IMG/VR virus record: IMGVR_UViG_3300005582_000033
Location: 1 to 38,447 of that record
Length of the DNA stretch: 38,447 nt
Reading direction: 5' to 3' (one strand)
From: a virus
Taxonomy: Duplodnaviria > Caudoviricetes
Positions within the stretch are counted from its first letter, which is position 1; every line of letters begins with the position of its first letter. Under the pieces are notes generated by a model. That model did not search any database. It saw only the letters and a list, made by a program, of their open reading frames with translations, and had not been told where the DNA came from. Shown here in pieces: positions 7,902 to 34,961 of this stretch. The translations under genes and the position numbers were made by a program.

Positions 7902-10900
7902 ATGTCCGATGAATCCTCTTTTTTCCGCCAGAAGCCTCAAGATGCTGTTCCGACTGGTCAAAGTCAGGAAGCGGTTGACGCCTCCCCGTCCGAACTGAGC
8001 GGAGGTTTTCAGCAACAGGCGCAAGCCCCGGTTTGGAAGAGCTTCGTTGACAACCAGGATTATCAGGACGCGAACCGGGGAGCAATCCAAGCCGAGCAAC
8101 AGCAGATGCGCCAGGCGGCGAGTGCTGCCAGTTCCGGCGACATTTTCAAAGGGGTCAACGGCAAGCTGATCCACAAGGCCCGAGGCCAAAGGCCCGTCGA
8201 ATACGACGCCGCCGATTGGACCGACGACCCGATTGCCGGACCCGAAGCCCGCAAGTCGATGTGGGATCGAGAGATTCGCACGTCCCGCCAAGAGGCGGAA
8301 ACGAATTCCTTGGAGTTGGCAAACCCGGCGTTTCACGCGCAGGAACTCAAGCAGAAAGACCGCGAGGCGATCGAAGCGGAGGGTTCAATGCTCCAAGAGA
8401 CGGACCCCCGCCACGTCGAACTGAAATCGAAGCTCGTCGCCGATGACGACTACAAGGCCCGCAAGGCGGACATGGCGCAACGCGCATGGAACGCCAAAGT
8501 TCGCGCCTCGCAGCTCGAAGCGATGGACCCAGAAGAGTGGTGGATGAACCGCCAGGCGCAACCCGCGCCGACTCCAACCGAACAACGGCAAGCCACCGTG
8601 CAGGCCGCGCAAAGCACAGCGGCACAAGGACAAGCCGCCGACCAGCAAGCGGCCGCACGGATGCAGGAGATCAACACGAAGCTGCAAGGCGGAGTCACTG
8701 CGGCAGAATCCAAGTCGTTACTCGCCGAGCGGGCGGAGATCGCCGCCAACCGCGCGAGGATCGCGGACATCAACGCTGGTGCAGCGGGTCAGATCGAAGG
8801 CGTGAAGGCGGAATCCGCCAACGCAACACCGCCGAAGGACTTCTTCGACCTTGGCGATACCGTTTCCGGCATCTGGGATGCGGTCAAGGGACTCGGAACT
8901 TCCGCGCCCGCCGCGTTTTATCAACTGGTCGAGGGCATGGAACGCCCGGACCAATACTCGGACAGTGCCAAGGCCGCGTTCGCCGAGGCCGATGCGTTCA
9001 ACAAGGAGATGCAGGCGAAGACCGAGGCCAATCAAAAGGCCGGGACATCCTCATCGGTCGGCGAGTCGTTCCGCGAAGCAGGCGGAAGCCTTGGCTTCTC
9101 GCTTGGCTCGATGGCGGCGGCGATTCCCGCTTCGATTGTCGGGACAAAAGCAGGCGCGGCGGCGGGTGGGGCGATTGGCGGCGGAATTGGTGCTCTTGGG
9201 GCAGGCGTCGGTGCTGTTCCAGGCGCGGGCATTGGAGCATCCATCGGCGGAACCATTGGTGGCGTGACGGCAGGTATGGCCGCATCAGGAACCGCCGCTT
9301 ACCGCATGGCGGGCGCGGCATTCCTCAATGAGACATTCAACACCGGATTGCAGGAATATGAAGCCGTCAATGGCGTTCCGATGCCGGAGAACGAGCGCAA
9401 GGCACTCTACGAAGCATTGCTTCCAGTCGCGAAGAACACAGCACTATGGGAAGCCGGACCGGAAGCCGTCGGAAACGCTTTTATGATGGGCGCGGGCAAG
9501 ATCATCCTTGGATCCACCGCGAAGAAGATCGCTGCCGAGGCCGCTAAAGCCGTGCCGGGATTGACGGTCAAGCGCATTGCCGCAATTCAGACGGGCAAGG
9601 TGGTTGGCAGCACCGCTGAACGCGAAGCCATCGGAGCGGCAACAAAGCAAGTCGGATCCAAGTTTCTCAACACCAAGTTGGGCAAGCTCACGGCGGGACT
9701 TGCTGACCTTCCGGTGGAAATCACCACGGAAGCGGCGACTCAGGTGGAGCAGTCCGCCGACCAGCAGAAAGGCGACATGATTGCCCGCGGCGAAGATGCA
9801 AGCGGGATCAAAGCCGACTGGTCCGCTGGAGGCATAGCCGAAGCGTTTAAGGAGGTTACACCGCAGACTCTCGCACTGATGCTCTTGATGGGCGGCGGCG
9901 CGGCCAGCGTCAAAGGGGTTTACAAAGCAGGCGAAAAGGTTCTTAGCGGCGGCGATTACAAAAAGGACAACGCTCGCGCCGGGGAAGCCCTCGAAGCGGT
10001 CAACACCGGGCTCGCCGCGATCGATCCCCAAGCGACGCCCGCCACACCGGACGAGATGCACGCAGCGGCATTCATCGCCCGCCCGACCGACGGACCCGCC
10101 GAGATAGCGGATGCGGTGATGGTCGAGCGCGAGCTGAAAGCACTCAGCGAACAGGAAGCTCAAGGCCGGGCGGACAATCTCGCTGGCATCCAGGCGGAAC
10201 TCGACAATGCCATTGCCAGCGGAGCGAAAGCCCCGGCGATCAAGGCTATCCAGACGAAGCTCGACGCGGCCAGTGCGGAAGCTCCATCTTCCAGCGCACA
10301 CCTTACCCGCGCCGCGCTCCAGATCGCCGCCGGGAAGGATTTGACATCCCTCAGTCCCGAGGAACTCGCGGCAGTCGGATATGAGTCGAAAGATGGCAAG
10401 CCGAAGAAGGATGCCAACGGCAAGGACGTCACGCCGACCACCTACTCACCGATCAAGCCAGCGAAAGGCGCGACCGCCGCATCGCCGATGATTACCAAAG
10501 GCGCGGACGGTTCGATCATTCTGACCGACACGGCCCTCGATATGGTTGCGGCAGCATCGCCCCGCGCTCGCGCCCGGATCACGATGAAGGCGACCGAGGC
10601 TATCGAGAAGGCGAACGTCCGCGCCGAAGCGGCACGGCAAGCAACTTTGGCAGCACCGGCCGCTTCGGGACAAGCGGGCGCGGGGGTTCCGGCTGGTTCA
10701 TCCGCTCCGGTGTTGCCGAACACCTTCGACGTGCCGATGCGCGACGGGACCATGATGCGCGTGCAGGCGAAGGATGCCAACGACGCGCTCCGCGAAGCCG
10801 CCGCAGTTGGTCAGATCGCCGGGACGCCCGCCGTGGCTGTCGCCGCCCCCCCTTCCGCTGGTGCTTCAAATGGTGCGCCGGGAGATCCGGCGACAGGTTC

Positions 10901-13900
10901 CCCGGCGGGTGTCGGGGGTATTGCTCCCTCAGAAACAGGGGCACCGGCGGAAGAGCTCGCGCCAGTCGCCAAGGAAATCGCCACCGCTGCCAAAGCACAG
11001 CAAATCCTCGCCGAGCACAAAGCGGGACACGTCAAAGCCCTGAATGACAACATCCGCGAAGTCGCCAAGGACACGGGGATGAATGTCACCGACAAGACGC
11101 CGCTGCAAGAGGTGATCGACCACCTCGAAGCGAAGTTTCCAACGGCAAAGATCGAGGATGTTCCGGCGGAAACCATCAAGCGGGTGACGAGTCTGGTGGG
11201 TAAGACTTTGGGCGGATACATGAAGAATCCCGCCGTTAAAGCGGTGCTCGTCATCGATCCGAAAAACAAGTTCAAGGCGGGAACGCATACCGACCACATC
11301 AAGATCAATCCCCGTCTATTGATCGAGGAAATTGCCATTGCTGGACTCTCCGACTCCGACGCAAAAACCTACATCGACCGGGTGCTGTTCGAGGAACTTC
11401 ACCACCTTTCGCAAGTCCAGACGTTCGCGGAGATTTACGCGAAGGACAAGCAGGCGGGACCGGATTACGGCGTATGGCTCAACAATTACTGCCAATCGCT
11501 GATTGCGGAGTTCAAGCGGGTCGGCATCTACAAGGATGCGCTCACGGTTTACGGCGAAGACATTCAGGCGAGAGAAGCCTACGTCCAAGTCGCCGAGATC
11601 AATCGCATGATCCTCCAAGACGCGATGACCGGCAACCCGACCGAGGCGACCAAGGCCGCGTTCAGTTCGCCCGCCATCCGTGAAGTCATCACTGCCGCGA
11701 TTGCCAAGCTCAAGAAATTCGTCGCAACATTCCGCGCCAATCCATCCGCATTCTCGAAAGAACTCGTTGAAAACATCGCCCGCGTCGAAGAACTTCTCGC
11801 ACAATATGACATCCCAGAACTCACCGGAACTCCAAACCAAGGGCCAACAAATGCTGGAAATCGTCCAGAAAAGCCAAATCGGAGCGGTCCGAACGCTGGA
11901 ACTCCTAAAGCTGCCGAAGCGGCAAGCAATAGCCAGCCTGCAAGCCCAAGCGGGACTCAGCCGGGCGGACTCGAAACACCTGTTTCATCTGCATGGGTCG
12001 GCAAAAGAGTAGCGTTTGTCCGTAACGGCGAGCGGCTGGAGGGCGAGGTTTCGTATGCCGAAGAAACGTGGCGCGGCCCGCTTCTCCAAGTGAAGCTCGA
12101 CACGCCGGACGCATCCGGCACACCAACCCGCGCGATCTTCCTCGATCAGATGCTGGACGCGACCGGCGCGACGATCACGGGGTTTGAGGATTTGACGCCG
12201 CCGGAAGCATCCACCGAAGACCCAAGCATTCTACCCGAAGATTCACCTAATCTAAGCGATATTGCTGAGAAAAATGAACAGGATTTCGAGGAGGATAGAA
12301 AAGAAATCGAACCACGGTTACCTCAAGGACTCAAGGTTGTCATGGGCGACCAATTTAGAGGTCCGCAAATTCAAGTGTCAATGGACGGCAAGGAACTCCG
12401 GGTGGCACCAGGATTCCTCACAAGGTTGAAAAACAAGTTCAAGTCCGCGTGGAAAGCCGTTATAGACATCGTAATCGATGAAGAAGTATTCCACCATCAG
12501 GACATTGAAGCTCGCGGAGGACAGGACGCCGCAGAGAAGTCATGGGCGGAAGAATGGAAGTCTGCATCTGCCGAAATCAAGAGACTTGTAGCGATAGCTT
12601 ACGGCAAAATGTCCGGCTTGGATGACGCTCAGAAAGGCGCGGAACTCTCCCGGATGAAGAGCCAGGTTGCACGGCTGGGGAAAATGACGGAATCCATGAG
12701 CACGGATTCCAAGCGCGTCGAGGCCGCTACACGGTTGGTTGAACTTCTTTCGCCACAGCAGCAATCGACTCCACAGGATACTGCGGAAGTTGCAGAACCG
12801 CCACAGGACAATGCGGAACCCGCCGCGATGACGTTCAAAGAACTCCAAGATGAGTTTTTTAACATGGCGGTGGAGGGGTGGAGAAAAGACATGCCATTCA
12901 GGCAAGAGGCTGACGAAATGCTTGGGCGGAAAGTCACTGACGCAGAGTGGGAGATTCTCGATCAAGAGTTCTTTGACGGTTCTGAGGAATACGACAAGAT
13001 CACCAACACCGCCCCAGTCGGACCGCCCCGCGACTGGTCCGGCGAAACCTTCGCCGACGACGCTCCGCTGCCGCTGGGAATCCACACTGTTGACGGTGTG
13101 CGGTTCGAGTGGAAGGAAGGCGAGATCAATGCGGTGGACCCTGGCTTCTTCCCGGTGACTACTTCCGGCTATCGGTCGGTGATGAGCGGATTCAACAAAG
13201 ACGCAAAATTCACGATCAACGACTACCGAAAGCTCGCCAAGGACGGCGAAAAGGTCGTCAAAGAGCAGTTCGCGCTGGAGAAAAAGAACATTCTCAAGGC
13301 CCTGAAATCGAAGGGCATGGGGTGGGAACTCTCTGGCCTGCGGCAGAAGTTCGATTCCAAAAACCACGATGCGGAAATCTCCCGTTGGCCGGAAAAGCTG
13401 CGGGTTGAAATGGTCGCCTTAACCAAGCAGTTGCTCGACGCGATCGCCAGCAAGGATGTCGTCGTCGAAGACCCGACCAACAATGATGCCCTCAAGAATG
13501 TCGCCGCCGAACTGAAGAATGCGTTCGATGCGTTCATGGGCAAGCCCGCCGCGCCCGCCGCGGAAGCGAAGCCCGCGAAGCCGAAGAAGGCAAAGGCCGC
13601 GCAACCCGAGCCGGTCGCGACTCCAGCAGTCGCCGACAAGGTGAACGGCATGATCCAAGCCGATGACGGCAAGTTCTACGCCGACACTCGCGCGATGCAG
13701 CAACTCAACAGCGATGAGAAGCGCGTTCAGCATGAACATATCGGATTCGGAGACTTTGAAACCAAGACCCCGCACGGGGATGTCGCTTGGCTTCGCATGG
13801 ACGACAAGAACTTTGAGGGAATGACCGGGCGGGTGCATTTACTCGCGGGCAACGAGGCATCCGTCGCGTTCCTCGTCGATGTTCTGAGATCGAAGGGAGT

Positions 13901-16900
13901 CTTTGAACCTGGCCCGGCGACACCAGCCGAAAAAGCCCCCGCAGCGGCGGAACCAAGCACCCGCGAAGTCACCCTAGACGACGGCAGGGTGTTGCAAGTT
14001 CGAGGCGAAGGAGCGGCTACCTATTGGCGCGACCCAACCGTGACCAATGGCCCAGGTGCAGGCGCGTTCATTTTGGCATCGCCGGAGTTTCGCAAGCAGA
14101 TCGAAGCGGCGGAGTCCTCCCCCGCCGCGACGGTCGATCCCGCGCTTGAAGCCGCCCGCGCGAAAGCCCGCGCCGTGCTCGATGGACTGTTCGCCGGGCC
14201 TTTGCCGTCCAACCGCAACGCGCTCCGCGCCGCACAACTGCCGAAGGGATTCACCCAAGAGATTCCCGCCGAACGCTTCATGCCGCTCATGGAAGCCGCG
14301 AGTGCGATGGTGCAGGCCGGAGTCAACACCCCCGAGGCACTCGCCGCGGAAATGGACAACCTCGCACCCGACCGCAAGGCCGTGCCGTTCGTGCAAGCGT
14401 TCTGGTTCGCGCTCAAAGCCGCCGGTGCCAAGGGCAAGGCGGAACCCAAGTGGGCGACCATCTACCGCGATCTTGACAGCAAGGCCGAACAGGCGCAGAT
14501 TTCAACCAAGGAACAACCTGATGAGCAAACTCAGCGAGACGGAAACAGCGGAAGTGCTACTGATGTTGGGACGGAAGAACCTACTTCACGCCCCGGCGAA
14601 GGCACTGACCCAGCTTTGGATCCAAGCGCAGGAGGGGACGTTGCCACCGGAGGAATTCAGCCCGGACAGCCAGATGGCAGCGGACGAGGCGAGTTACCGG
14701 GCGGATCTGTTCCAGGAGGTGACGGAGATGTTGTCGGAGCAGGAGATAACGACGGCGCGCCTGAAGGAAATAGCGGAAGCGGGAGTTCCGTGGCTGGAGC
14801 GGGAGTTCGTAATGCAACACGACCCGAGCTAGGATCACCCGAGGCGAATTTCGTCATCGAAGATGGTTTTTCGATGCCCAAGGGCGAGAAAGCCCGTATC
14901 GCCGCCAACCTCAAGGCAATCACCCTGCTTCGCGAGATCGAGGCGCAAGGCCGGGATGCCACGCTGGAAGAGAAGAAGATTCTTTCCGCTTACTCCGGCT
15001 GGGGATCGTTCAAGAATGCGTTCAACCGGGTCAATCAGAAGAATTGGCTATCGATCAACGAACGTCTCGAAAACGCCTCGCCTTACTACCGCGACAACAT
15101 CCGCGACTCATCGGCCTACCAAGAACTCCGCGCATGGCGTGACAAGTGGGGCGAACTTTTCGACACCCTCGACGAGATGCTTTCGCCGGAAGAATTCCGG
15201 GCAATGTCGAAGTCCATCCGCAACGCTCACTTCACCGCGCTGCCGATCATCGATTCGATGTGGAACATGGTTCGCGCGATGGGATTCAAGGGCGGCAACG
15301 TCCTCGAAACGTCGGTCGGTGCCGGATACTTCGTCGGTCGCCAACCGGTTGACATGGCGAACGTCTCGAAGTGGTCGGCGGTCGAGCTGGATTCGATCAC
15401 CGCCCGCGTGTTCTCCAAACTCTACCCCGAGTCTCGGATCAACGGCAACGCGCCGGATGCTGGCCGGGTGGTTGACGGGCAAGGATTCCAGAAATCCAAG
15501 ATCCCGAACAACTCGCAGGATCTCATCATCGGCAACTTCCCGTTCGCCAAAGACGGGCCGATGGAATCGTTGAAGGAGTTCGGGCGAAAGCTCAACCTTC
15601 ACAACTACTTTTTCGCCCGGTCCATCGACAAGCTCAAGCCCGGCGGCATCCTGATTGCCATCACGTCGAATTCGACGATGGACAACAACATCATCCAGCG
15701 GGAATTGATCGCCGGCCGCGTGGAGTTGGTGCAAGCCATCCGCCTACCGAACGACGCTTTCAAGGAAAACGCCGGAACCGAAGTAACCACCGACATCCTG
15801 ATCCTTCGCAAGAAGGACGGAAGCCGCGACGCGCAATCCGAATCATGGACCAACACGGAATCGGTCGGCGAAGATACAGTTTACGCCAGGCAGGGCGACA
15901 AGTCGGATCACGCATTTCTTTCGGAAATCTCCCCCGATTGGGTGCCGGTCGATGAGGATTTGCGCGAACCATGGAAGGAATGGCGGGCCAAGAAGTCCAA
16001 GAGCGGCGTGAAATGGGACTTGCTCACGCACCTAATCAACAATCACCGCTACGGAAGCCAAGGCATCCCATTCCGCGCTCAGATGGTGGTGAACGAATAC
16101 TTTGCCCGCCACCCCGAGACGGTCATCGGGCGGCACGCGCTCGAAGGATCGATGTATTCCGCCGGTTCCTACGCGGTGGTTTCGGACGGTGTGGACGTGC
16201 AAGCCCGCCTCAACGAACTCATCAAGAGCCTGCCGTCGGACCTGTTTGAAGAATCCGAGCTTGGCTTGTATTCCGAGCCGGAAACCATCGAGGCGAGCGC
16301 ACAACACCGGAACGGGTCGATTGTCCTCGTCAACGATCAACCTCACCACGTCGTCCAAGGCGAGCTTGTGCCGGTCCGCTGGGATCTGGAATACACCGAA
16401 GACTTCCTTGCCGATGCGAAAGAAGTGAAAGCCGTCTTGGCTGGCAACCCGGAACTCAAAGCGAGGTTCGCCGCCACCTTCGACACGCTCAACGGCAACA
16501 TGCTTGCCAACTGGATCGACGGATTTCTCGACGAGCATCTCACGCCCGAGACGGCGAAGAAGATTCGCGACAAGATCGCCAAGGAGGTTGCCCGCCGCAA
16601 TGCGGTGTTCAAGTCCTGGGTCAAAGTCAGGGATTCCGCCCGCGCTCTCATGGATGCGGAGCTTCGCGGCGACCCGGCGGGAGAACTCTACCGGGAGGCT
16701 CTCAACCAGTCCTACGACGCCCACGTTGCCGAGCATGGGGCATTCAGCGCACGCAGCCGAGCAGGATCGCGGAATCCTCACAAATTCCTTTTCGACGAGG
16801 ACGATAGCCCGCTTCTCGAATCGCTGGAGGACGAAGTTCTCACCGGCACCGACGACAAGGGCAAGCCGATCTACCGTTACGAAAAGCGGCCAATCTTCAC

Positions 16901-19900
16901 GGAATCGATGGTTTCCAACGCCATCGCACCAACCTCCGCGAAGGACATCAAGGAAGCCGTTGGCACGTCGATGGGCTACAAGGGCCGGATCAGTCTGAAA
17001 TACATGGCGAGCTTGCTGAAAGTCTCCAAGGACGAGGCGGCGAAGCAACTGGCGGAATCAGGACTCGCGTTCAAGAATCCGAAGTCCGGCCTTTACGAAA
17101 CCGCCGACTTCTACCTTTCCGGCGAAGTCCGCGCCAAGCTCCGCGAAGCTGAAGAGGCGGAAACCTTGGAGAAGGGGGTTTACCAGTCGAACATCGAGGC
17201 ACTGACCAAGATCATCCCTGAAAACCGGCCAATCCAAGCGATTTCGGTCATTCTTGGAAACCGCTGGTTGCCTGGGTCGATCTACTCGAAGTTTGCCGAC
17301 GAAGTTATTGGCATGGACACGCCGGAAGTCCGCTACGAACAGGCATCGAATAGTTTCAAAATCAATACCGCCGGAGATAACAAGCGTCGTCGGAATCGCG
17401 GTGAGCGGGACGTTCGTGCAGCAGATCCCGATTACCTTGGAACCGATCGCGTTCGCCCCGAAGAGATTTTCGAGAACATCCTGAACTCGCGCGAAACCAA
17501 AGTGATGAGGGCGGGTCCGACACGCGGATCCATCGTCTTGGATGCAGAAGCCACCATCGAGGCGCAGACCAGGGCCGGTCAGATGATGGACAAATTCGCC
17601 GAGTGGGTGAAGACATCGAAGGACGAGGTAGAACACGAAGGGAAAACCTACCGTGTCAGTGACTTGGCGGAGCAGGAATTCAACGACAAGGTGGCCGGAC
17701 TCGTCACCCCGACCTACGTCGGCGAGTGGGTGACGCTCCCCGGCCAATCCGGCGAAATCTGGCTCAAGCCGCACCGCAAAGCCGTCCTCGCCCGCTTGCT
17801 GACGATGGGTTACGGCATGATGGCGCACGGTGTCGGTTCCGGCAAAACCTACAACCAGATCGCGCTCGCGATGGAACTCCGCCGACTTGGCAAGGCCCGT
17901 CGGGTGGTGACGATCGTTCAGAACTCGACGATCCGGCAATTCGCCGCGTCTCACATGAAGGCGTATCCACACGCTAAAATCCTTGTCGCCGACGAAGAAA
18001 ACTTCTCCGCCCGCAAACGCGCCCGGTTCCTCGCGAAGATCGCCACCGGCGATTATGACTCGATCATTATGACTCACTCGAACATTTCCCAGATCGGGCA
18101 TGACGAGCAGGCGATTCGTAATTACATGGCGCGGGCGATTGGCGAAATGGAGGAAGTGCTTGCCGGCGCGGAAGCCGGAAGCCAGCAGCAAGGCGACATC
18201 CAGGCGGCACTCGACCAACTGCAAGAAAAGCTCGAAAAGCTGCTCGCCAAGGCCACAAGCCGCGCGGGCAGTGTCCTGACATGGGAACAGCTTGGAGTGG
18301 ACGCGATCATCGTGGACGAGGCGCACGAATTCAAAAACGCGCCGATCATCACCCGCAAGGAGCGGATCAAGAACCTTCCAGCGTCAGGAACAGCGTCCGA
18401 CCGGGCGGTGATGATGCAGATGAAAACCCGCAGCGTGCAGAGCATGACCGGCGGGAAGAACGTGTTCTTCGCCACCGGCACGCCGATCACCAACACGATG
18501 GCGGAAGCCTACACGATGATTAACTTCATCGCCCCGCACATCCTCGAATCGAAGAACATCAACAATTTCGACGACTTCGCGACCATGTTCGGCCGCACCG
18601 TTTCGGAACCGGAAGCGACATGGCGCGGGGCAATCGAGATGGTCGAGCGGTTCGCGAAATTCGTCAACGGCCCGGAGCTTGTCGCGCTCATCCGGTCGGT
18701 GTTCGACGTGGCACTTGGCAACGAGAACTTGGGAATCCGCGTGCCGCGAATCAAGGGCGGCGGGCCGGAAATGCTCATCGTGGAACCCACCGAGGCCAGC
18801 GAGATTTTCAACGATTGGGTGATCGACACCGCTGCGGAGTTCGACGGCATTCAGAACAAGCGGGCGGCTTTCCAAGAAGACCCGTGGATGCAGGCAATCC
18901 CGATTATGATTATGCAGGCAGGCATGGCGCAAGCCATCGACCCGCGCCTCATCAATCCGATGGCCCCGGATGATCCAGCGTCCAAGGTCAACCAGCTCGT
19001 CGCGCGGATGATCGACATTTACAAGGACGGCACCGAGCGCAAGACCGCCCAAGTTGTTTTCACGGACCTTTCTAACCCGTTCTCCACCCTATTGCTCAAG
19101 CAATTCAACGGCGACCCGTTCGCCGAGTATGGCGACGTTACCCCGGAAATGGCCGATCTTGAAGCGCAGATCATGGCGGCACCGACGGAAACCCCGGCGG
19201 AGAAGAAAGCGAAGACAAAGCTCGTCAATCGTCTCTCCGATCTTGCGGAAAAGCGGTTCAGTCTGATGGACGACATCAAGCAAAAGCTCGTTGCCGCCGA
19301 CATCCCCGCGAGTGAAATCTTTCTGGCCGATTCCTCGATCAACCCGAAGAAGCTCAAAGCATCGTTCGACAAGGTGAACAGCGGAGAAATCCGCATCATC
19401 ATCGGATCGACCGCCCGCCTTGGAACCGGCGTGAACATCCAAGAGCGTCTCGCAGCCGCTCACAACCTCTCCCCGCCGCGCGACTTCAAGCCGGCCATGA
19501 TGGAACAGCGGATCGGACGCATCGAGCGGCAAGGCAACTTGCACCGCGATTGGGCGGATCAGGCTCTTGTCCACGTCGTGCAGAAAATGGCGAAGATTTC
19601 GTTCGACGCGAAGAAGCTCGAAGACCGCTATGAGATGGCTATCGACTGGCTGGAAAAGAACGGCACCGACAAACAGAAGGAAATCGCCCGCAAGGCCGAG
19701 GCGCAATTCGAGATCATCGTCATCAACTACGGGCTGAAATTCTCCATGGATTCGTCGGTTTATTCGATGATGAAGGCGAAACAGAAGTTCATCGACCAGG
19801 TTCTCATGGGTGAGAACGTCACCGATGAATTCGATGATCCGATGTCGGCGGAATCCAACGCCTTCGCGCTGATGGCGGCGGAAGCGATGGGTGACGAGAA

Positions 19901-22900
19901 TTTGAAGCGGCGCGTCATCCTCGACGGTGAACTGAACAAGCTCACCGCCCTGCGGACGGCGCACGTCCGCGACAAGAACAACCGCGAGAATACCTTGGAC
20001 CGTGCCAAGAACGATGTCGCATCGCTCACGCGGCAAGACCCCGACGGCATACGCGCCGAGGGCAAGAAGTTCGCCGGACTCTATGGCCGGAAGAAGCGGA
20101 TCGTCAAAACGACGAAGGGAGCGTTTGAAAAAATCTTTCCCGGTCATTTCGGAAAAATTACTGCCGAACAGGAAAAAGAACCGTGGGAGCGCGAAGTTGA
20201 AGCTCCGGTTTATCGATTCGCCGATCAAGAGATCGACACGGCCAAGTCGGATCAAACGATCACCAAACCGCTGAATGTGTTCATCGCGGACGCAATGGTT
20301 GACGCCAAAGACACCGGGGAAATCGCAACCCGTGACATCACGCTGAACGGCGAGCGGTTCGTTCTCGCCGTCAGTCACTACAAATCCTTTGGGGAATCCC
20401 GCTACTCCGCCCGTGTTGTGTGGCCCGGCAAGGTCGCCGGCCGCGTGGTGTTCGAGGCTTCCGTCAACGTCAGCGGCGAATCTCCGGCATCGAGCCTTCT
20501 CGACGGACTTCGCACACTTTCCAACCCCGACTACGCTGAGAAATACGCCAGCAACATCGAGCGCGAGATCGAGATGCACCAGCAGACCGTCGCGACGCTG
20601 GAACCACTGGTTGCCAATCCCCGCCCGTTCGCCGAAGAACAGGAATGGCGCGAGAAGTCCCGCGAGTCCATCGAAGTCAACCGCTTGCTCGCTCAAGCGA
20701 ACTCTGACCCGCGCAAGCATCGCTACTTTCGGGCACTTTCCCGATTGGTCGGCGATGATGCCACCGAGCAAATCCTTGGCATCGACGGCAAGGAAGGATT
20801 GCCCGATGTCCCTGCCGACGTGTGGAAACGGATGTTCATCCGCTTCCGGTTGGATCGCCGTGGCGTGCAGAACAACCCGGCGGCGATTGCGAAGAGGTTT
20901 CGCGATGTGGTTGCTACCGACACCGGCCAAGCGGCTGCGGACGCAGCGCGAGCGGAAGCTGATGCCGCCCGTGGAGGGCTTGGCAACTCCCCGATTGCGG
21001 GCATTGCGCCCGGAGTCATCACCGACGAAATGATTGCGGATCTGACGCGCAAGCTGACTCCGCCCGGCTTCATGTTCGCCTCTCCTCGCTACCGGAAGCG
21101 GGACGGGCGACTTGCCACCCTCCGGGGTATAGAGAACAAGCTGGCCCCCAAACTGGAAGCCCTCGAAGCCCGCGATATGTTCGGTCTTGGATTGGCGGAC
21201 AAGCGCGATCACGCGGCGAAGATCGCAGCGGCGAAAAAGCCACTGGAGAAGATCCGCGCGGAAATCGCGAAGATCGAAAAGGACAAGTATCAGGAGACGA
21301 TGCGCGGCGAAACGAGCTTGCTCCGCGCAGGCCCCCTCCCCGCCCCTATCCTCACCAACTCCCCCGAGTGGATGGCGATGGACAAGGACGAACGCCTTGC
21401 CACCGTCAAGCGGCAGAAGAGCGTCGCCCGCCAATACGTCGAGGCGATCAAGTCCTTGTTCAACGAAGACCTTGGGACCAACGACGGGCTGAAAGACGTG
21501 CCGGAAATCAACTCCAACCCGGTCGAGATGATTCGGGAGATCCGGCACTTGGTCGGCATCACGATCAACGGAATGCAACCGCTCCGCGCCGGGCCGTTAC
21601 CAGCGTCACAGGCATGGTCAACGCCACAACAAAGAGTCAGCAGTAAGGCGACCAGCATTTCATATCCCGATCCTGCCAACAAAAGCCCGATTGTTTTCAC
21701 TGCTTTCAAGGCCGGGAAAATCTCCATCGGTCCAATCAATGCGGACATCGGTGGAGGTCGATTCGATCAGATCACGAATTGGCTGAAAACCCGAGGCGTA
21801 ACGAATGTCGTGTGGGATCGGTTCAACCGTTCCGATGAGTTCAACAATGCCTCAAAAAAACGACTCCAAGGAGGCAAGGCGGACACTGCTACTGCGAGCA
21901 ATGTTCTGAACGTCATTCCAGAAAAGGAATCACGGATTGCCACCATCGCCACCGCTTTCGACTCGATCAAAATTGGAGGAACCGCAGCGTTCTCCATGTA
22001 TGAAGCTCCGCAGGGTGGTGACAAGGGTAAGGATTCCTACCAGCACTCCAAGAAAACAGCGGAATACATTCCCGAGATCGAAGAGGTTTTTGGCAAGGGC
22101 AACGTCAAACGCATCGGCGAGATCCTCGTCGCAACTAAAAATTCACCGCTTCAAGCCGGACCCCTGCCAGCCCCCGCGACCGACTTCAAGCGGTTCCCGG
22201 CGGAATGGAACTCCCTCAACGTGCCACGGGCGGAAATGCCGCAGGTTCCAACGTCGGAGCGTCCGGCGTTCCTGCAATTCCTCAAGGATGCAGGCGTGAA
22301 AGTGACCGACGAGCAGATGGCACCGAAGGCGATCACGCCGATTCAGATCGAATATTTCCCATCGAAGGTCGAGCGGGCGAAAGGCATCCCGCCGGAACGT
22401 CGCGTGTTCGTGTCCGCCGACAACTACCTCCTTGACGGTCATCACCAATGGATGGCGCAACGCGACCGCAGCACGGTGAACGTGACCCGGATCGGGCTAC
22501 CGGTGCGCGAGGCGATCGGGACCATGTTCCTGTTCCCTGGCACCGAGAAGCGCGAGGGTGGTACAGCACTCAACGCTGGGCCGCTGCCGCAGAATACCGG
22601 AGTAAAGGCTTATCGCTATGTGAACCGGGATGGAGTCGGCATGTTAAATCGGGAGGCATACAACATCGATAAACTCAACGACGATGACGCTTCCGATTTA
22701 GAAGAGTGGCTCAACTACGGATTGCAGCAACCGCGAGGCGTGGCAAACGACCAAGTTTTCCTCTTTACCGAGGAAGGAGACGCGAAACATGCGGAAGGGC
22801 TTCGCTTGCTCAAGAAAGCGGCGCGGCGTGGTTTCGTGAAGCAAACGGTATTCGTCTCTGGAGAACCCTCATGGGAAAGTGGCGATGGTCAGATTGCGGT

Positions 22901-25900
22901 ATCCTCATCACAGATCAAACAGACATCCCCCGGCAACCTCCGTGCCGGTCCACTCCCCGCCCCGGATCCGCGCCTTGTGAAAGAGTTCGGCGAGAACTTC
23001 GAGGCGGACGAATACGGAATGCCGGTCATTCCTAAAACCCTGCCGGACGGGCACCCATTGTTGGTGCAGACGGTGGATAAGAAAACCGCGACCATTCCGG
23101 CGGATCACCCGCTGGTTGCCGGTCTTCCCAAGGATCACGACTTAGCGAGGGGACTGCCCGCCGACCACCCGGCATTCAAGGGCGGATTCCTCCAGTCCGG
23201 GGAAATGTCCCGCCGCGCCATGCGCCGCGGCATCGTCCGGTTTTTCATGTCTTTCGGGACTCCACTGGCGGATGACGTGAAACCGATCGCCTACGCCACT
23301 GGCGGCGGCGGCGGGGCTGGTAAGTCCACCATTCTGAAGATTCTCAGCGGAGAGGGCAGTATCAACACCGTTGGCGCAGTCCCGGTGAACTCCGACGACA
23401 TCAAGGCACTGATTCCCGAATGGAATGAAATCGTCAAAGCTGGCGACGGGCGGGCGGCGGCAATCGTTCACGAAGAGTCTAGCAAGACGGCGAAGGACAT
23501 CCTTGGTAAACTCCTGACCGGCGACACGAAATACAACTTCATTTACGACGCCACCTTGGCAAACACCGAAAAGAGCATCCGCCAGTTCGGCGAGTGGAAG
23601 GCAGCGGGATTCGACGTAGTGATGATCGCCGTCACCATCGATCCGCAGGAAGCGGTTGTTCGTGCAACGCTCCGCGCCAAGGAAACCGGGCGATGGGTGC
23701 CAACCGGCGAACTGTTCAAGGCTCACGCCGGGTTCAACCGGGGAGTGATGGAGCTGATGGGCATCGCCGATACGGCATACGCCTACGACAACACGCCTCC
23801 AGAGGCTCACAAAATCGCCGAGAAATCTTCCGAAACGGATACGATTTCTATTGTCAATCAGGAGTTTTTTGAGAAGATCAAATTGCGTGAAGAAGAAGTC
23901 CCAACTCAGTCAAATCAAGATGCCGGCGATAATCTCCGCCGAGCAGATCAGCAAGGAACGCGCTCGCCAGAAGGCGGCGGACAAGGCGGCAATGGCGCGG
24001 ATCAAGGCCAAGGGTCGCTAACCCCCCCCGAACTCGCCCGCCTGATGCGCGGCGACCGGGGCGACGACACCATCGAGCCGACCGGGCAAGAGGAATGGGC
24101 GAAGCGCAACCCGGCCAGCGCGGCAAAACTCCGGGCGGCAGTGGACCGGCAGGCCCGCGCCAAGGGCTACACACCCGAAAAGGTTTTTCATACCACCGAA
24201 TCCACCGAATCAACGGCAGGGAAAACGTATCCTTACGCTCCTGGCGATCTGCGATACACTGGCACCAAAGCCGAAGATTGGGACGAGGTATCCATCAACG
24301 AAAGGGGCGCGTTCTACGTCACTGACGACAAGGACGCGGCAGACCAATTTGGATGGCTGAAAACCCGTTACAAGTCGCTCAAGCATCGGACCATCGAGCT
24401 TTACGCCAAGCAGGGCAACTACTTCGATTCATCCAATCCCGATCACATGGAGTCCGTCAAGCGGTCGGTGACACGGGAAGAACTGAAAGCCTCGAACGAC
24501 TTTTGGGAAGACTTCCACAAGAAGAACCCAGATGGGGGATTCGTGAACAAGAACACATCTCCTCCGCGATGGGGGCAGTTTTGGAAGAAGGACATTGTTG
24601 GATGGCAGGTAATGGAAGATCATCGCGTGATCGCCAAACTCAAAGAAGCGGGTTTCGATGGATACCGGTCGCGCGAAATGAGCCCGGATGAGGACAATGA
24701 GATCGATTTCATGTCTCTTGGCGTATTCAACCCTTCCTCCGTGAAATCTGCGGATCTTGTCACCTTCGACAAGTCCGGCAAGCCAATCCCGATTTCCGAG
24801 CGTTTCGACGATTCCAAGCCCAGCATCCTCTACGCCGGACCACTGCCGACGGCGCAGAACAACGACGCCGAGGAACTCGCCCGCCTGATGAAAGGCGACG
24901 GCGCACGCGAGCCAGAACCGACAAAATTTCGGGAGGATAGAGCCAAATACATAAAGTGGTATGATGAAAGATTAGAGAGGAAGGATGAATTCAACTTGCT
25001 GAATCCGAACAATCGCGGAGATGCCGCCACCGCGCTGTATAACGAATACCTCTCCCGCCAGCCGTTTGCGAAGCTGCCGGAGGAAAGGAACTACCGGGGA
25101 AACATCTCCGACGACCTTCTTACGCCGACGACCAACCAAAAGTTTTGGGCGGAGCGTAATCCGGTCAGTGCTGCCAAACTCCGCAAGGCCGTGGACAGCC
25201 AAGCCCGCGCCAAGGGTTACGAGGTGGATATGCTCCTTCACGGCACTCCAGGCAACAACAAGGAGATCGCCGACGACTCGCAGAAGAATGGCCCGAACGA
25301 AATTCGGAGTTACGATGGCACCGCCCCCGGTGACTTCGACGTGTTCGACGCGAAGAATACCCGGCAAGGAATGGGACTCCATTTCTTCACGAAAGATCGG
25401 GTTTTCGCCGAAGAATTCACGACGTTTGAGGACACCAACGGCAGACGTCCGGGAGGCTATCGCTACATCCCCGCCTATCTCAAAATCCGCAAGGCATGGG
25501 ACAGTAGAAATCCTGAGCATCAAGACATTATCAGGGATCTTGTTCCAGAAGATCAGCAACAACACATTGGATCCGAATTTACTTTTAGATACGTCGAACA
25601 ACCGGACGCGATTGCTCGCCTCAAGAGTCTAGGCTTTGACGCTATCCGACTTTTTGAAAATCCAGGAATGTCCGGAGATTGGGCTTATGATGGATACACT
25701 CACACCGTCGCCGTCTTCAATTCCTCGCAGGCCAAGGATGCCTCACTGGTGACTTTCGACAAGTCCGGCAAGCCAATCCCGATTGCGGAGCGGTTCGACG
25801 ACAGCAAGGATTCCATCCTTTTCGCCGGCCCGCTGACGCCCGCCGATCCTCTTTCATACAAAAAAGCGGATCAAACAGACCCGTTAAGGCAAGGGTCTAA

Positions 25901-28900
25901 GTATTGGATAACCAGCGGGGGAACTTGGTATCAATCCATTGGAGAGCACGGCAATTCCGCCGCAGAAATGGAAGATGATGGGATATCCACTGATGACGCA
26001 ATTCGGGTTGTAGTCGAAAACGGGAAAACATTGTTTTTTGAGGGTTCACCGAACCGGCGACAACTGAAAGAATTGAAAGATGCAGCTCAGATGTATCGGT
26101 TCGATCTGATTGACGATTCAGGAAGATTGTATGCCGGGCCAATCGGCACCCCGGCCCCCGAGGGAGACATCTTCCGCCGCAACGTGCCGATCAACCCCGC
26201 GCTTGTCGAAGAAGCCAAGGCCGAACGCGAGGCATTCGGCAAGAACATGGCCGGTGGTCGCCTCGCCGGTTTCGGGTCCGACCGCACCCGCGCGGAGCAG
26301 GACGCCATTGATGCCGTCTATGAGTTCACCCGCACGGTGCAGAAGAACGCCGATACGATGAACGTCGCCCGGCAGATGCTCGCCCGCGATCCTGCCGACA
26401 TCGAGCGCAAGCTCCTGGATTCCGTCACCGACAAGGATTTCAACCTCACTCCCGCCGATCATCTTGCCATTCAACTCCTGATCGACCGCAAGACGCAGGA
26501 AGCCGGCAACGACCCGAACAAGCTCGCCGAGAACGGAGCGCGGATGATGGCCTACCGGATCATGCGTGGCGATGCCGGCCGATTGCTCCAGATCGGGTAT
26601 GATCGTTACCTCACGCCCGCCGAGCGCAACCTGGCCTCAATCACCGACGCCATCTTCACCCCGACGAAGAAGATTCAGAAGGTCATCGCCAGCCGCCCGG
26701 TTTCCGAGCGGGCAGCGTTCATCCGCGCCGCCGCAGAGGCTCGCGTCAAGACCGTGGAGGCAGAGCTGAAAAAGGCCGGGTTGTCGATTGCCGAAATCAC
26801 CCGCAAGTCCGATAAGCTCGCACTCGAAAACTCGCAAATGATGAAGGAGGTGATGAAGCTCCGCAAAACGCTCGACCAGAACATCCTCAAGATGATTCAG
26901 CACGGCGCGACGCTCGCCGACATCAATCGCCGGTATGGCCCGGAAGCCGCCGCGCAGGCGCAGGGCATCAAAGACAAGGCGATGGACGAACTCGAAGCCA
27001 AGATCACGCCGATGGTGCAGGCTGGCATGACCATGGAAGAGATCGTTGCCAAGCTGGGAGCGTTGCAGGCTGGTCCCATCGGTGGAGCTACCCCCGCGCC
27101 GCTCACCCCGGCGCAAGTCGCCGCCCAGGTCGCGCAGATCATGGCGAACGGACTGGGACTCGCACGCGGCCCGATTGCCGCCACCGCGCCACTTCCCCGC
27201 GCTGCCCGCGCCAAACCACTCGTCAACGTCGCACCGACGGCGATCAACTCCGATTGGTCCCGTCCGATCATCAATGCCGCGCTCGACACCTACACCTTCG
27301 ACACGAAAGACCGCTCGGGGATTATGACTCGCGTGGAGAACATTCGGATGCTCGCCGGGGCCGTCGGCCAGATCGACAAGCTCGACCCGGCGAAGAAAGC
27401 CCAGGCACTCGCCCACCTCGCGGAGATCGACAAGATCCTCGCGAAATACGGCACCGACACCAACACGCTGTTGGCCGAGGTCCACGCCGGAAAGCCCGTC
27501 GAAAGCTACCGTTTCGACATCAACGACGTGCAGCATGTCGCACACATCGCCCGGATCATTTCAACGATGGACGCCGACTGGATCGACAAGGCCAGCGAAG
27601 TTCTTTACGCGAACATGCTCTCCGGCCTGCAAACGATGGTCGTCAACGCGACGGCGGTTTTTCCAGCCGCATGGGAAGCCACCGTTGGCCGCGGCTTTGA
27701 GATGGCGATCAACATCGCGGTCGGCGACCCCCTCGCCCCGCAGGCTGGGGAAATGAAATACATCCTCGCCGCACTCAAGCCTGCATGGACGCGGGCATGG
27801 TCCAACTTCTCCGCATCGATGCAGGCGCAACACCCGATGTTCGACCGGGACGTTCTCAACCAGCAACCCGACATCGAGCGCGTGATGGGCGGCAAAGGCT
27901 ACCGCATGGGCGGCAGCATCTCCGGGAAAAAGGGCGACATCATTCGCATCCCATCCCGCCTCCTGATGGCGACCGATGACTTCAACATGACGCTGTTCAC
28001 GATGGCGGACGTGGGAGCATACGCATTCCGATTCGTGAAGTCTCAGGGATTCAAGCCTGGCACGCCGCAATTCGACAAGGAGATGCGGATTCAGATCAAC
28101 ACCCCCGGCAGTGAGTCCTACATCCTCGCCGCCACGCGCTACAAGCGGGCGATCTTCTCGAACCCGCTGCCCGGCGAACGGGATCCGGTGACCGGCAAGA
28201 CGGTGCCGGTTCACGGGCTGGGTGACATGGTTGGCGAGTGGGCGGGCAAGCTCAACGGAGCACTCACCAAGGAGCATGATTCCATGTTCATCAAGCTCGC
28301 GCAAACCTTGGCGAAGATCAGCTTCTTCCCGTTCCAGCGCGTGCCGTTCAACATCCTGCGGAAAGGCATCCGCTACACGCCGAATCCGGTAAGTCTGTTC
28401 GACATCGGCCTTGGGATCGTCCAAAACTCCCTCACCACCGGACCCAACGGCGAGACGGTTTGGGAGTGGAACACCAACAAGCGGAATGCCGAACTCATCG
28501 AGCGGCTGGGGATGCAGCTCCAAGGCGCGGCATTGCTGACGCTGTTGGTTGCGGTCGGTGCTGGCGAGGGTGACGACGACGACTTGAAGAAGCCATTCCT
28601 CATCACCGGATCAATGCCGTTCACGCCGCAAGGCCGGGCGATGCGCGACGCGCAGACCCGCAGCGGACTCGGACCTTCGAGGTTCAGCTTCCGCAACAAG
28701 GACGGCACGGAGCGGTTTGGATTCAACTATGGCAGGCTCGAACCGCTCGCCACCACGCTCGCCGCAACCATCGACACGGTTCGCGCCGTGAAGCGGGCGC
28801 ACCGCGCGGGTAAGGACAACTACGACGCCGCAGCCGAGGCACTTGGCGGACTGGTCGCGCAGGCCAAAGATAAGTCATTCCTTCGCGGAGTGTCCGACCT

Positions 28901-29534: not shown

Positions 29535-29668
29535 TCGCTCCTGATTCAACTCCGTTCCCATCCGATTACAAACTCACGCCCGAGCAAGAGCGGGATATTA
29601 TTGATTTTGCGAAGAATCGCTTAAAGCAAATCGAAGCCGAAATGGCTGATAAAACACCACGACCATGA
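29531..29668 (+). CDS. 45-aa mini-protein homologous to the portal N-terminal segment
   Basis: MIAPDSTPFPSDYKLTPEQERDIIDFAKNRLKQIEAEMADKTPRP. ATGA overlaps with both flanking genes; 12/30 ungapped identity to portal residues 32-61. Confidence 0.65.
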   Translation: MIAPDSTPFPSDYKLTPEQERDIIDFAKNRLKQIEAEMADKTPRP

Positions 29669-31854
29669 ACCACGAAAACGATCAATTCGCCCGCGTCATC
29701 GAACCCAAGGAAGGCGAAGAACCGCAGCATGACGATGGTTATAGTCCAGTAATGGGTTTTCCAACTTCCTACGAACTCACCCGCGATCAGGAGGCGGATC
29801 TGGTCGCCCACGCGATGACCCGCAAGGAAACGCTGGAACGTCAGATGGGCCGTGATTTGTGTTCCGGGTCCGGGTGGTATAACTCGCCCGGAGCATCCGG
29901 TCGCGACGCCATGGGCATTGACGCGCCGCAAGAAACGTGGATCGGCAAGCGCACGCTTTTCGATCTTACCTACCGCAACGACATGCGTTGGCGGGTAGGT
30001 CTGCTTGGCGGGATATTTGCCAAGACCAACCTCGTCGTGCCGGCCGCGCGGCGGATCTGCCGCCAGATGATCGCCCGCGCGGTGAATTACTTCTTCGCGA
30101 CCTCGCCATGGTTCTCCGCTTACCCGGTGGGCGCAATGGACCGGATCAAGGCCGACCAGACCGACCGCTACTCCCGTTGGAAAATGGACCAAGCGAAGCT
30201 CCAGCGGACGGAAGAGCAGGCGGTCGAACGCGCGTTCATCCTCGGCGAAGCCGTCATCAAGACCAGTTGGGCGAACCGCCAGCAGTTCTACAAGACCGAG
30301 GCGGAAGTCCTGGTCGATGCGAACGGCGCGGACATTCTCGGAGCCGATGGAGACTACATCATGCCGTCCGACAAGTGGATCCTCGACTCGACAGAAGACC
30401 CCGCCACCGGCGAGATGATCCCCGGCGAGTTGATGATGCTCGGTCGCGACGGCGTGACTCCGCAGCCCGCGGATTTGATTTTCGCCAGCAAGAAGATCAC
30501 CCGCCGAATCACCCACTACAAGGGGCCGGAGGCGAAGGTGATCCAGTTCCGGGACTTCCTTTGCCCGCTCGAAGCGGAAACCGTGCAGGAGGCGGATTGC
30601 GTCGTCCACATCTACGACAAGCCGATCATGGAGCTCGCCGATGAATGGAAAAAGGCGATTCCGCTCGACGCCACCGCGGAAGAGCGCATGGACGCCAACC
30701 GCCGCGCCGTGGAGATGCTCCGCCGGATCGGCAACTCGTCCGGTGACACCAACTCCGCGCAGAACAGCGGCGCGGTCGATAACGCGTCCGCCGAGCGGCT
30801 GCATTCCGACCAGACCCAGCCGGTGCTTGAAATCGGGGAATTCCATCTTCGCTACGACGCCGACGGCGACGGTCTTCTCGAAGACGTGTTCCTGGTCATC
30901 GACCTGAAAACCCGCACGCCGATTTTCTACGACTACGAGGCCAACATCACGCCGGACGGATTGCGGCCGTTCTCGGTGGTCCGCGTTAATGAGGTTCCGG
31001 GCCGGTGGTATGGACTCGGCGCGATGGAAATGTTCCAAACCTCGCAGGAGATCGTGGACCTTTGGATGAACCGCAAGAGTTTCGCGAGTTCGTCATCCGG
31101 GCGGGTGACGTTCTGGGATCCGTCGAAGACCAAGGAGGGCGCGGCGAATCCACACCTTCAACTCAACGGCGGGATGACCTACACGCTGAACACCGGAGCA
31201 AAGGCGGAAGAGGCTCTTTCTGTTATCTACCTCGACGACAACAAAATCGACGACTTGCAGCAGATGATCGAGTTCTTCATGCAGTTGATGATGAACGAGT
31301 CCGGTATCGCGAATGCCAACGATGGAAACGTGTCCGGCATGGACTCCACCAAGCTGGCGACCGGAATCCGCAATATCGAGAAGTCCGGCCAAGAGCTCTT
31401 CGGAATTTACCTTGGGCACCTCGAACCGGGGATTTCCGAGTCGTTGGAAAAGATGGTGAAGATCCTGTTTTCCAACATGGACCAGATGGAGGTTTACCGG
31501 TATTTCGAGAGCGGCGAGGCTGGCGGCGAGGATTCGAGCGAAATGCGCGAGATCAATCCCGGCGACATCGCCAACCTCCAGATCAACACCCGCGTCCTTC
31601 TCACCCGCCGCCGCGGCGAACAGGTGATCGAGTCGAACGCGCGGATCATCGAGCTGGTCGAGAAGTTTTACGGATTCCCGTTCCTGATTCAACAGATCGT
31701 CGTGACGCAGTTTGTGGAAATGGCGAAACAGTTCCAGTGCCCGGATCCGCAAAAGCTGTTTATTCCGGTGGAAGTGCCAATCGTCGGACCATCCGGTCCG
31801 GTGAACGGAGCTCCGCCGACATCGCAACCTCGACAATCGGCACCGAACCTGTAA
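29665..31854 (+). CDS. Portal protein (P22/N4-like podovirus type), 729 aa
   Basis: Size, position and motifs AFILGEAVIKTSW, YDADGDGLLE, RPFSVVRVNEVPGRWYGLG, KLATGI. Confidence 0.85.
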   Translation: MNHENDQFARVIEPKEGEEPQHDDGYSPVMGFPTSYELTRDQEADLVAHAMTRKETLERQMGRDLCSGSGWYNSPGASGRDAMGIDAPQETWIGKRTLFDLTYRNDMRWRVGLLGGIFAKTNLVVPAARRICRQMIARAVNYFFATSPWFSAYPVGAMDRIKADQTDRYSRWKMDQAKLQRTEEQAVERAFILGEAVIKTSWANRQQFYKTEAEVLVDANGADILGADGDYIMPSDKWILDSTEDPATGEMIPGELMMLGRDGVTPQPADLIFASKKITRRITHYKGPEAKVIQFRDFLCPLEAETVQEADCVVHIYDKPIMELADEWKKAIPLDATAEERMDANRRAVEMLRRIGNSSGDTNSAQNSGAVDNASAERLHSDQTQPVLEIGEFHLRYDADGDGLLEDVFLVIDLKTRTPIFYDYEANITPDGLRPFSVVRVNEVPGRWYGLGAMEMFQTSQEIVDLWMNRKSFASSSSGRVTFWDPSKTKEGAANPHLQLNGGMTYTLNTGAKAEEALSVIYLDDNKIDDLQQMIEFFMQLMMNESGIANANDGNVSGMDSTKLATGIRNIEKSGQELFGIYLGHLEPGISESLEKMVKILFSNMDQMEVYRYFESGEAGGEDSSEMREINPGDIANLQINTRVLLTRRRGEQVIESNARIIELVEKFYGFPFLIQQIVVTQFVEMAKQFQCPDPQKLFIPVEVPIVGPSGPVNGAPPTSQPRQSAPNL

Positions 31855-33772: not shown

Positions 33773-33859
33773 GCTTTGAATATGGCATTTCCGAAAAATT
33801 TAGCAAAGCCTAAGATTCTTAGCTTTACAAAAGATCAAGGTTATGAGACGAATCCCCAC
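33773..33859. promoter_or_regulatory. AT-rich divergent promoter region
   Basis: Strongly AT-rich 87-nt gap between the divergent ATGs at 33772 (-) and 33860 (+). Individual boxes are not confidently assignable. Confidence 0.5.
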
Positions 33860-34870
33860 ATGGCAGACAATCAGGCGGAAGCCGATCAAACTGACGAAAC
33901 GGTCGCGGATCCATTCGATGCCGCGAATTCCCAAAATAATGGGACTACCGACCTGTCCAACTACGAGGACGAGATCGAAGCGATGAAGCAAGGCGGAGAA
34001 ATCCAACTTGGCGACGACGAAGAGCAGGAGCAATCCGCCGACGACGAAGCCGATGCCTTTGACGATTTCGCCGCCGATCTGGATGATGAAACATCCGAGG
34101 AGGAAGAAACCGACGAGGATGAGCCAGGCGCGAAATCGCAGGAGCGTTTCCGATTCAAGTCCGACGACGACAAGGCCGTTGCCGCCATCGCGAAAGCGAA
34201 AGGCGTGTCCCTGGTCGAAGCCGCGCGGATTTATTCGGGAGAGCAACCGCAGGCCCGCGCCGAGGAAACGACCCGGCAACAGCAATCGGCACCGTCCGAA
34301 ACCCTGTCCGTCGTCGAATCCGAGCTCGATGCGCTTTACGAGAAGAAGGATGCCGCCATTCGAGCGATCGACGTGGACGAGCAAGCCGAGCTTGAGAAGC
34401 AAATCCGTCAGCTTGAGAAAAAGGCCCGCGTGATGGCGATCACCGAGGCGGAGCAATCCGCCCGTGCCGCCCAATCGCAACTGGAACAGGATCAGCAGAA
34501 CTTCGATGCGTCGTGGGATTTCTCCCGCAACCGCTACCCGGAACTGAACGACCCGAACAGTGCCATGTATAAGGAAGTTGCCCGACTCGATGCAGAAATG
34601 CAGGAGCTTGGCGACCCGCTGGCAAACGATCCGAAACGTCTCTGGGATTTGGCAAAACGCGCCGGGCTCAACACCCGCACGCCGATGACCAAGGCTCGCG
34701 AATCTTCCCCCCCTAAAAAGGGCAGAACTGGTAGTCCAATCCAACCCGCCTCGGGCAACCGCGGCACAACCTCCGCCGATTCAAACCAACGGTTTGAGCA
34801 GCAGGTTGAAGGACTCCAGACGCTTGACGAATACGAGGAATCGGTTCGGCTGATGTTTGGAAGGGTCTGA
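33860..34870 (+). CDS. Capsid scaffolding protein, 336 aa
   Basis: Very acidic N-terminus, coiled-coil middle, basic/Pro linker and short C-terminal helix; directly upstream of the capsid gene. ATG 33860 is preferred over 33776. Confidence 0.75.
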   Translation: MADNQAEADQTDETVADPFDAANSQNNGTTDLSNYEDEIEAMKQGGEIQLGDDEEQEQSADDEADAFDDFAADLDDETSEEEETDEDEPGAKSQERFRFKSDDDKAVAAIAKAKGVSLVEAARIYSGEQPQARAEETTRQQQSAPSETLSVVESELDALYEKKDAAIRAIDVDEQAELEKQIRQLEKKARVMAITEAEQSARAAQSQLEQDQQNFDASWDFSRNRYPELNDPNSAMYKEVARLDAEMQELGDPLANDPKRLWDLAKRAGLNTRTPMTKARESSPPKKGRTGSPIQPASGNRGTTSADSNQRFEQQVEGLQTLDEYEESVRLMFGRV

Positions 34871-34961
34871 CGGCTACTGAGCAATTCCATTGGTGGAAAC
34901 TAGGCGGGTTCTCCGCTCCCGCGAGGGGGCACAACCCCAACCAACCAACCAAACCACCATT

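Follow-up and report, generated by a model that had tools for sequence, protein, structure and literature searches.

A recurrent L-x-A-G-P-[LI] motif in a giant polyvalent phage protein as a candidate self-processing signal

Background

Autoproteolytic release of the domains of polyvalent phage proteins was proposed by Iyer et al. in 2017 (PMC5512222), and self-processing of such proteins is accordingly a published prediction, not a new one; the accessible text of that paper describes DdrB of phage P1 as processed and the vRNAP of phage N4 as unprocessed. Here we describe a 7210-amino-acid (aa) protein of about 786 kDa, encoded on the plus strand at 7902..29534 of the virus record IMGVR_UViG_3300005582_000033, and the motif L-x-A-G-P-[LI] that it contains ten times. 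The record is a 38.4-kb phage fragment (38,447 nucleotides, hereafter the window) and represents a partial genome, the relative G001 being 59.7 kb long. Like the proteins described by Iyer et al. (PMC5512222), this is a giant phage protein with a methylase-helicase dyad, an ART-PolyVal domain and a zincin-like domain. No cut-site or junction motif is named in the accessible text of that paper, and the candidate metallopeptidase (MPTase) domain here mostly reads E-E-x-x-H where theirs reads HExxH, and matches no Pfam MPTase model. We found no description of a junction code or of cut sites in open-licence papers and bioRxiv.

Other giant virion proteins invite comparison. The window shares an SU10-type portal and a GP4 gp80-like fibre with podophages of the phi24B gp47/GP4 type (bioRxiv 10.64898/2026.04.10.717836), for which the available text reports a giant LPD protein with a metallopeptidase domain in virions and an uncleaved major capsid protein. 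In contrast to the protein considered here, gp47 is 2811 aa long, peptidoglycan is the proposed substrate of its peptidase, and no processing is reported in that text. Nor is processing of cargo reported in the accessible description of crAss001. The gp65-gp66-gp67 protein of crAss-like phages (bioRxiv 10.1101/2020.03.07.982082) is a fused virion polyprotein with a zincin-like domain that is called likely cleaved, but its cargo is RNA polymerase and the available text gives no sites. In prohead-protease processing, as by T4 gp21 or SPN3US gp245, a short motif is repeated at many head-cargo sites, and the protease is a separate one that also cuts scaffold and capsid. The present locus differs: it has no recognised gene of this kind, and the motif occurs in one protein alone.

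Results

All ten copies of L-x-A-G-P-[LI] are in frame in the 7210-aa open reading frame (ORF), and a six-frame scan of the window finds no further match. Numbered from the N-terminus, and all on the plus strand, they are LFAGPLP at 14187..14207 (aa 2096), LRAGPLP at 21321..21341 (aa 4474) and again at 21582..21602 (aa 4561), LQAGPLP at 22149..22169 (aa 4750), LNAGPLP at 22569..22589 (aa 4890), LRAGPLP at 22938..22958 (aa 5013), LYAGPLP at 24828..24848 (aa 5643), LFAGPLT at 25818..25838 (aa 5973), LYAGPIG at 26127..26147 (aa 6076) and LQAGPIG at 27063..27083 (aa 6388). A first-pass annotation made from the sequence had placed the ten copies and given the lengths of the segments between them, correctly on both counts. 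The protein's composition predicts 0.032 copies; 5000 shuffles returned no copy 4849 times, one copy 145 times and two copies, the maximum, six times. L.AGP is the commonest spaced four-residue word of its shape in the protein. Where two copies share a residue, they use the same codon in 67 of 237 pairs, while the gene's codon usage predicts 73.4±10.4; the flanks share no DNA similarity except at two ART tails. The motif is therefore kept as a peptide, as had been proposed, and the comparison of codons rules out a DNA repeat or a gene-conversion signal.

For comparison between proteins, we name sites by position: A lies before the cargo, B at the start of the C-terminal core and C inside that core. 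Motif 1 lies in the site A region, and motif 2 marks a mosaic breakpoint in a related strain. Motif 3 comes after an 87-aa unknown module and is followed by a methyltransferase-like module at 21603..22148 (+), so labelled from Atlas look-alikes (Methyltransf_23 on 24-38% of members, score 0.97). Motif 4 precedes a mobile 140-aa module, which may be ParB-like by its DGHH motif, Pfam giving no confirmation, and motif 5 precedes a 123-aa unknown module whose suggested ART-like label finds no support in Pfam, PHROGs or NCBIfam. Motif 6 opens a 630-aa plus-strand piece with a zeta-toxin-like kinase (Zeta_toxin, E 1.7e-27) and a weak ART-PolyVal match (E 0.009). Motif 7 follows an ART tail and precedes a second ART-PolyVal module (+, E 1.6e-9), motif 8 precedes a 103-aa unknown module, motif 9 is site B at the start of the conserved C-terminal core, and motif 10 is site C, which keeps its place in a gapped linker within the core and is not a swap point. 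The earlier statement that the copies lie mostly at domain borders thus holds for these module borders, but there is no copy at the zeta/ART junction, inside the 2378-aa DarB block or in the first 2095 aa, and the last copy is internal to the core. The portal, scaffold and capsid proteins of the window lack the motif, as do the N-terminal modules of the giant protein; isolated core-like words occur, without pattern, in 4 of 15 structural proteins checked.

A degenerate copy, LRAAQLP at 14223..14243 (+, aa 2108), was recognised from the start and proves genuine, since it occupies the place of the relatives' site-A motif, directly before the conserved post-A domain. Site A of this protein is a tandem (14187-14243), with the A-G-P form upstream and the A-A-Q form directly before the conserved domain. 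The homolog P0012 shows a similar doubling at site A with its own variant. Such a tandem may have arisen when a second site was placed next to an older one.

With the C-terminal 1121 aa as query, a search gathered 27 homologs of 4.0-6.9 thousand residues, two of them named from Verrucomicrobia; the homolog P0022 bears the name of Luteolibacter pohnpeiensis. No related viral locus appeared in the search with the C-terminal region, no isolated phage matched the core of the 7210-aa protein, and a tree of this region, quick and unfinished, serves for orientation only. The three closest homologs have five to six L-x-A-G-P copies each, and the others use L-x-A-A-P, A-S-P, S-A-P, T-S-P, A-A-[DE] and similar words. 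By sequence comparison, the family core is L-x-[AST]-[AGS]-x-[LI], of which Gly-Pro is not a part. With the four most distant homologs left out, the core [LMI]-x-[AST]-[AGS] is present at sites A, B and C in 24/24 close homologs, as expected of a motif with equivalents at equivalent borders, although the same pattern had served to pick the sites, which makes its conservation in part a product of the selection; windows of equal size drawn at random match it at rates of 0.28 (A) and 0.44 (B). The sixth position, which lies outside the selection pattern, is L or I in 63 of the 72 anchor sites. Position 4 is A in 38, S in 21 and G in 13, position 5 is P in 38, and the second, x position is R in 15 (3 of the 10 copies in the window protein). 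On these counts, the Gly-Pro site of picornavirus 3C, to which the first-pass annotation had likened the motif, was rejected as an analogy.

The variants change in concert within a protein. At positions 3-6, with three sites each, there are 177 within-protein matches, compared with 130.0±5.6 when sites are shuffled between proteins; nine proteins of less than 60% identity give 72, with 52.9±3.5 expected. Matching at the x position is at chance. A larger automatic set (34 of 42 proteins having all three sites) returns 268 matches against 209.7±6.1. The motif that follows the same ART tail matches site C of its host protein 36 times versus 22.6±2.8, the 13 of 22 tails with a site C being testable. 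Likewise, in 56 proteins the word at site C turns up again 87 times within the same protein where 14.6 are expected, a foreign word averaging 0.33 matches per protein; 84 of the 87 copies come after the zincin-like domain and 3 before its end, a span that makes up 27% of the length. A de novo word search of 98 more distant giants gave a clear repeated word of the protein's own in about 27, judged by eye, and none in the rest. Uniformity of the motif within a protein is thus a tendency, strongest in the clade of the window protein. Among the freshwater runs listed with near-identical DNA, 7 of 12 hold at least half of the words, and one of them may be where the window comes from; no RNA run is among these listed holders.

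Domain architecture differs among the homologs, and modules are exchanged at the motif. For instance, P0001 lacks the methyltransferase-like (189-aa) and 123-aa modules from motif to motif, P0003 lacks the methyltransferase-like one in the same manner, and P0016, P0017 and P0023 have insertions next to site A with a motif on either side. Of the 147 alignment ends between aa 4300 and 6200, 63 are no more than 15 aa from a motif, compared with 13% of positions; the ends are not independent of one another. A contig from run X2 is about 98% identical to the window from 21324 on and has different upstream sequence that ends in a Leu codon of its own, which places the breakpoint at the motif's first codon (21323/21324). 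Site C behaves otherwise. It is spanned by the alignments of 52 homologs, as a gapped linker within an invariant core, and no swap occurs there. That site C follows the other sites, though it is no swap point, is the main reason to think that the motif is read.

Further observations concern the mosaic structure. In run X2 the whole DarB-like block (13949-21323) is replaced by a diverged homolog, with both flanks near-identical. The 140-aa module (22149-22568) also occurs upstream of site A in many relatives, generally without motif flanks. The precomputed Pfam lists of P0007 and P0027 include PF14528 beside the helicase, presumably the LAGLIDADG intein endonuclease family, which suggests inteins in some homologs.

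The candidate reader of the motif is a zincin-like domain, Z1, at 11163..11762 (+, aa 1088-1287), with E1164-E1165-x-x-H1168, E1232 and R1235; a second, Z2, lies at 12255..12755 (+, aa 1452-1618). An N-terminal E/H-E-x-x-H…E-x-x-R domain is found in 28/28 proteins gathered by their C-terminus, the window protein having two. A profile search for the domain returned 205 proteins at E ≤ 0.001. Across 184 domains, the residues at the positions of E1165, H1168, E1232 and R1235 hardly vary, in part because of how the profile was built, and the downstream Glu is present in 184/184. The model of Z1 (predicted local distance difference test, pLDDT, 94) has an N-terminal helix, three strands and two ligand helices, which is the MPTase layout of Iyer et al. 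(PMC5512222); a single-sequence fold of aa 1047-1633 was uninformative (pLDDT 42). Z1 has no significant Pfam or PDB profile match, and fold searches of four libraries returned nothing above background, with which a zincin is still compatible. Neither the window nor the complete relative G001 yielded a further recognisable processing protease; in G001 the sole peptidase match among 131 ORFs of at least 100 aa is an M15 carboxypeptidase, most of these ORFs having no family and one ORF that crosses a locus border having been left out of the scan. The N-terminal part is itself mosaic: Z1 resembles the domains of P0019 and P0045, and Z2 those of P0082 and P0117, both being of other lineages than the domains of the closest relatives. 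In P0082, P0106 and P0058, additional zincin-like domains are themselves cargo modules, with the junction word of the respective protein on their flanks.

The rest of the protein and its surroundings bear on its role. Its sequence makes it a phage-type polyvalent protein of the class of Iyer et al. 2017 (PMC5512222), several effector-type domains (DarB-like methylase/SNF2, Zeta_toxin, ART-PolyVal and methyltransferase-like) being joined in one chain. It is encoded between the terminase large subunit (2985..4742, +) and the SU10-type portal (29665..31854, +), in a gene order (terminase, giant protein, portal) common to the window, G001 and G002 that marks the virion module, and for its C-terminal part there is a weak match to a PHROG of internal virion proteins (E 5e-4). 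This context and match suggest a protein that is probably packaged in and ejected from the virion. A hydropathy scan finds hydrophobic segments near both ends: Gly/Ala-rich stretches at aa 395-450 (9084..9251, +), which are likely membrane-inserting, and a segment at aa 6868-6891 in the conserved C-terminal region (27084..29534, +). Between site A and motif 2, a small conserved domain (aa 2117-2192) and then the DarB-like methylase and SNF2-type helicase block occupy 14250..21320 (+; phrog_10089, E 2.5e-195). The probable scaffold and the major capsid protein (33776..36461, +) come without a protease gene. The GP4 gp80-like fibre gene is in the window as well.

Between portal and scaffold, on the opposite strand, 32145-33323 (-) holds a 392-aa ORF with no family match; at the corresponding place in G001 lies a minus-strand ORF of 384 aa, with no BLAST match to it. 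The plus-strand ORFs of 1-2900 look spurious, and the true genes there are probably on the minus strand. Upstream of the giant gene, 5193-7316 encodes a low-complexity 707-aa protein, possibly a second ejection protein; in its G001 and G002 homologs, conservation is concentrated at the N-terminus. It has four [IV]-[AP]-G-P words in Pro-rich stretches. As further junction motifs its [IV]-A-G-P words were rejected (three AGP where 0.96 are expected; absent from the G002 homolog).

Discussion

The reading that we favour, tentatively and at a little under an even chance, is that the motif is a cut site used by the protein's own N-terminal zincin-like domain; that it is a cut site in some form, whatever the enzyme, we regard as somewhat more probable than not. 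The phage would pack one precursor, with membrane-inserting ends and cargo in the middle, the cargo being a DarB-like antirestriction unit, a methyltransferase, a zeta-like kinase, ADP-ribosyltransferases and unknowns. Cleavage at the motif, whether in the head or once the protein has been ejected, would release about eleven pieces of 10-263 kDa, with candidate scissile bonds between A and G of L-x-A-G and directly before its Leu. A new module flanked by the signal could then be delivered with the others and would need no separate gene. The processing signal posited in the first-pass annotation has gained from the conservation as peptide, the placement at borders and the sites in homologs; cleavage and the identity of the enzyme, like packaging and ejection, are what we infer.

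Several observations weigh against this reading. Among homologous domains, 161 of 179 have Glu as first ligand, in place of the first His of the classic motif, which 18 keep. Fold matches of Z1 to zincins are weak (selecase, E 0.73; ArdC, Z 4.2, root-mean-square deviation 4.9 over 121 aligned residues), and globin-like or unrelated helical folds outrank them. Motif similarity between proteins does not track the identity of their zincin domains (rho 0.03; partial 0.17, P 0.09), and no convincing covariation with the motif variant was found for the Z, N-terminal, A, B-C or C-terminal domains in a test that kept two visibly off site-C picks, P0005 and P0019. To illustrate, Z1 is about 28% identical to the domain of P0002, which shares A-G-P, and 54% identical to that of P0019, which has A-A-P/T-A-P; Z1 was swapped in the lineage of the window protein without a change of motif. 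Some relatives carry zincin-like domains as motif-flanked cargo, and such a domain may thus be a passenger as well. Taken singly, the Pro position shows no significant concerted change (P 0.18), and the site-C words of many proteins never recur in the same protein. A second X2 contig, probably of the same strain though not bridged, has A-A-P at site A beside A-G-P downstream; mixed variants therefore exist and uniformity is not strict. Lastly, the N4 structure paper, in its accessible part, has the HExxH-bearing vRNAP chain packaged whole. The zincin-like domain may read the L-x-small-small core only, or the reader may lie elsewhere.

Were the motif instead an uncut docking or handling tag, it would bind a groove, be it in the core, the portal, the scaffold or a chaperone, so that modules are packed, threaded or refolded. 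This accounts for concerted conservation at the peptide level as well as cleavage does, HExxH-bearing ejection proteins can remain whole (the N4 case), and the B-C segment, alone among five domains tested, has a nominal partial correlation with the motif variant (0.21, P 0.025). A single tag, however, would be enough to package one chain, the motif is missing from the N-terminal modules and from portal, scaffold and capsid, and a short L-x-small-small linker word generally resembles protease sites. We consider a docking tag improbable, if worth keeping in view, and give much the same low weight, a touch less, to a recombination joint or preferred linker that module shuffling has spread and made uniform and that nothing reads. 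The clustering of alignment ends near motifs, the X2 breakpoint in a motif's first codon and the failure of variants to track any domain in cis are what such a joint would leave. Selection for intact, releasable modules would also leave breakpoints at the motif, however, and the motif codons are as diverse as the gene average, between flanks without DNA identity. Moreover, site C matches the other sites yet is never a swap point, and at site B the motif is a low-entropy island within variable linkers.

A protease encoded elsewhere, either an unrecognised phage gene or a host enzyme, would explain why the zincin-like domain could be swapped while the motif stayed and why the variants are decoupled from it, and the window is only part of a genome. 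L-x-A followed by a small residue recalls the assemblin/prohead-protease consensus. Against this, the head module has no recognised prohead protease, leaving room for one foreign to Pfam, the scan of G001 yielded only the carboxypeptidase, even if most of its ORFs have no family, and head proteins are generally without the motif. We hold this account to be unlikely, slightly more so than the two before it; in its specific form of a prohead-protease maturation code it was rejected, as there is no recognised protease gene in the head module and no motif pattern in scaffold or capsid. Very improbable is a ribosome arrest or skipping signal that pauses translation between domains. Three of the ten copies do read RAGP, the core of SecM/RAPP-type arrest peptides (PMC12992588), but the available text of that source makes the Arg essential and irreplaceable. 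Here that position is free and Gly-Pro is not conserved across the anchors, and on this ground SecM-like arrest was rejected.

Conclusions

It is possible, and we put it forward as a tentative model in which our confidence is limited, that giant ejection proteins of this kind are self-processing polyproteins whose lineage-specific cut code is read by an atypical, Glu-liganded EExxH zincin. The code would act as a plug-in standard, any module flanked by it being packaged, injected and released, with exchange taking place at the code itself. The 7210-aa protein offers ten exactly placed candidate sites and a candidate enzyme whose key residues can be named, and natural variants can serve as specificity controls; together these make the question of self-processing directly testable. 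If true, the model would explain how separate anti-defence enzymes arise from one chain of about 786 kDa, would allow unannotated giant phage proteins to be divided into modules by a simple rule, and would possibly add a new sequence-specific protease.

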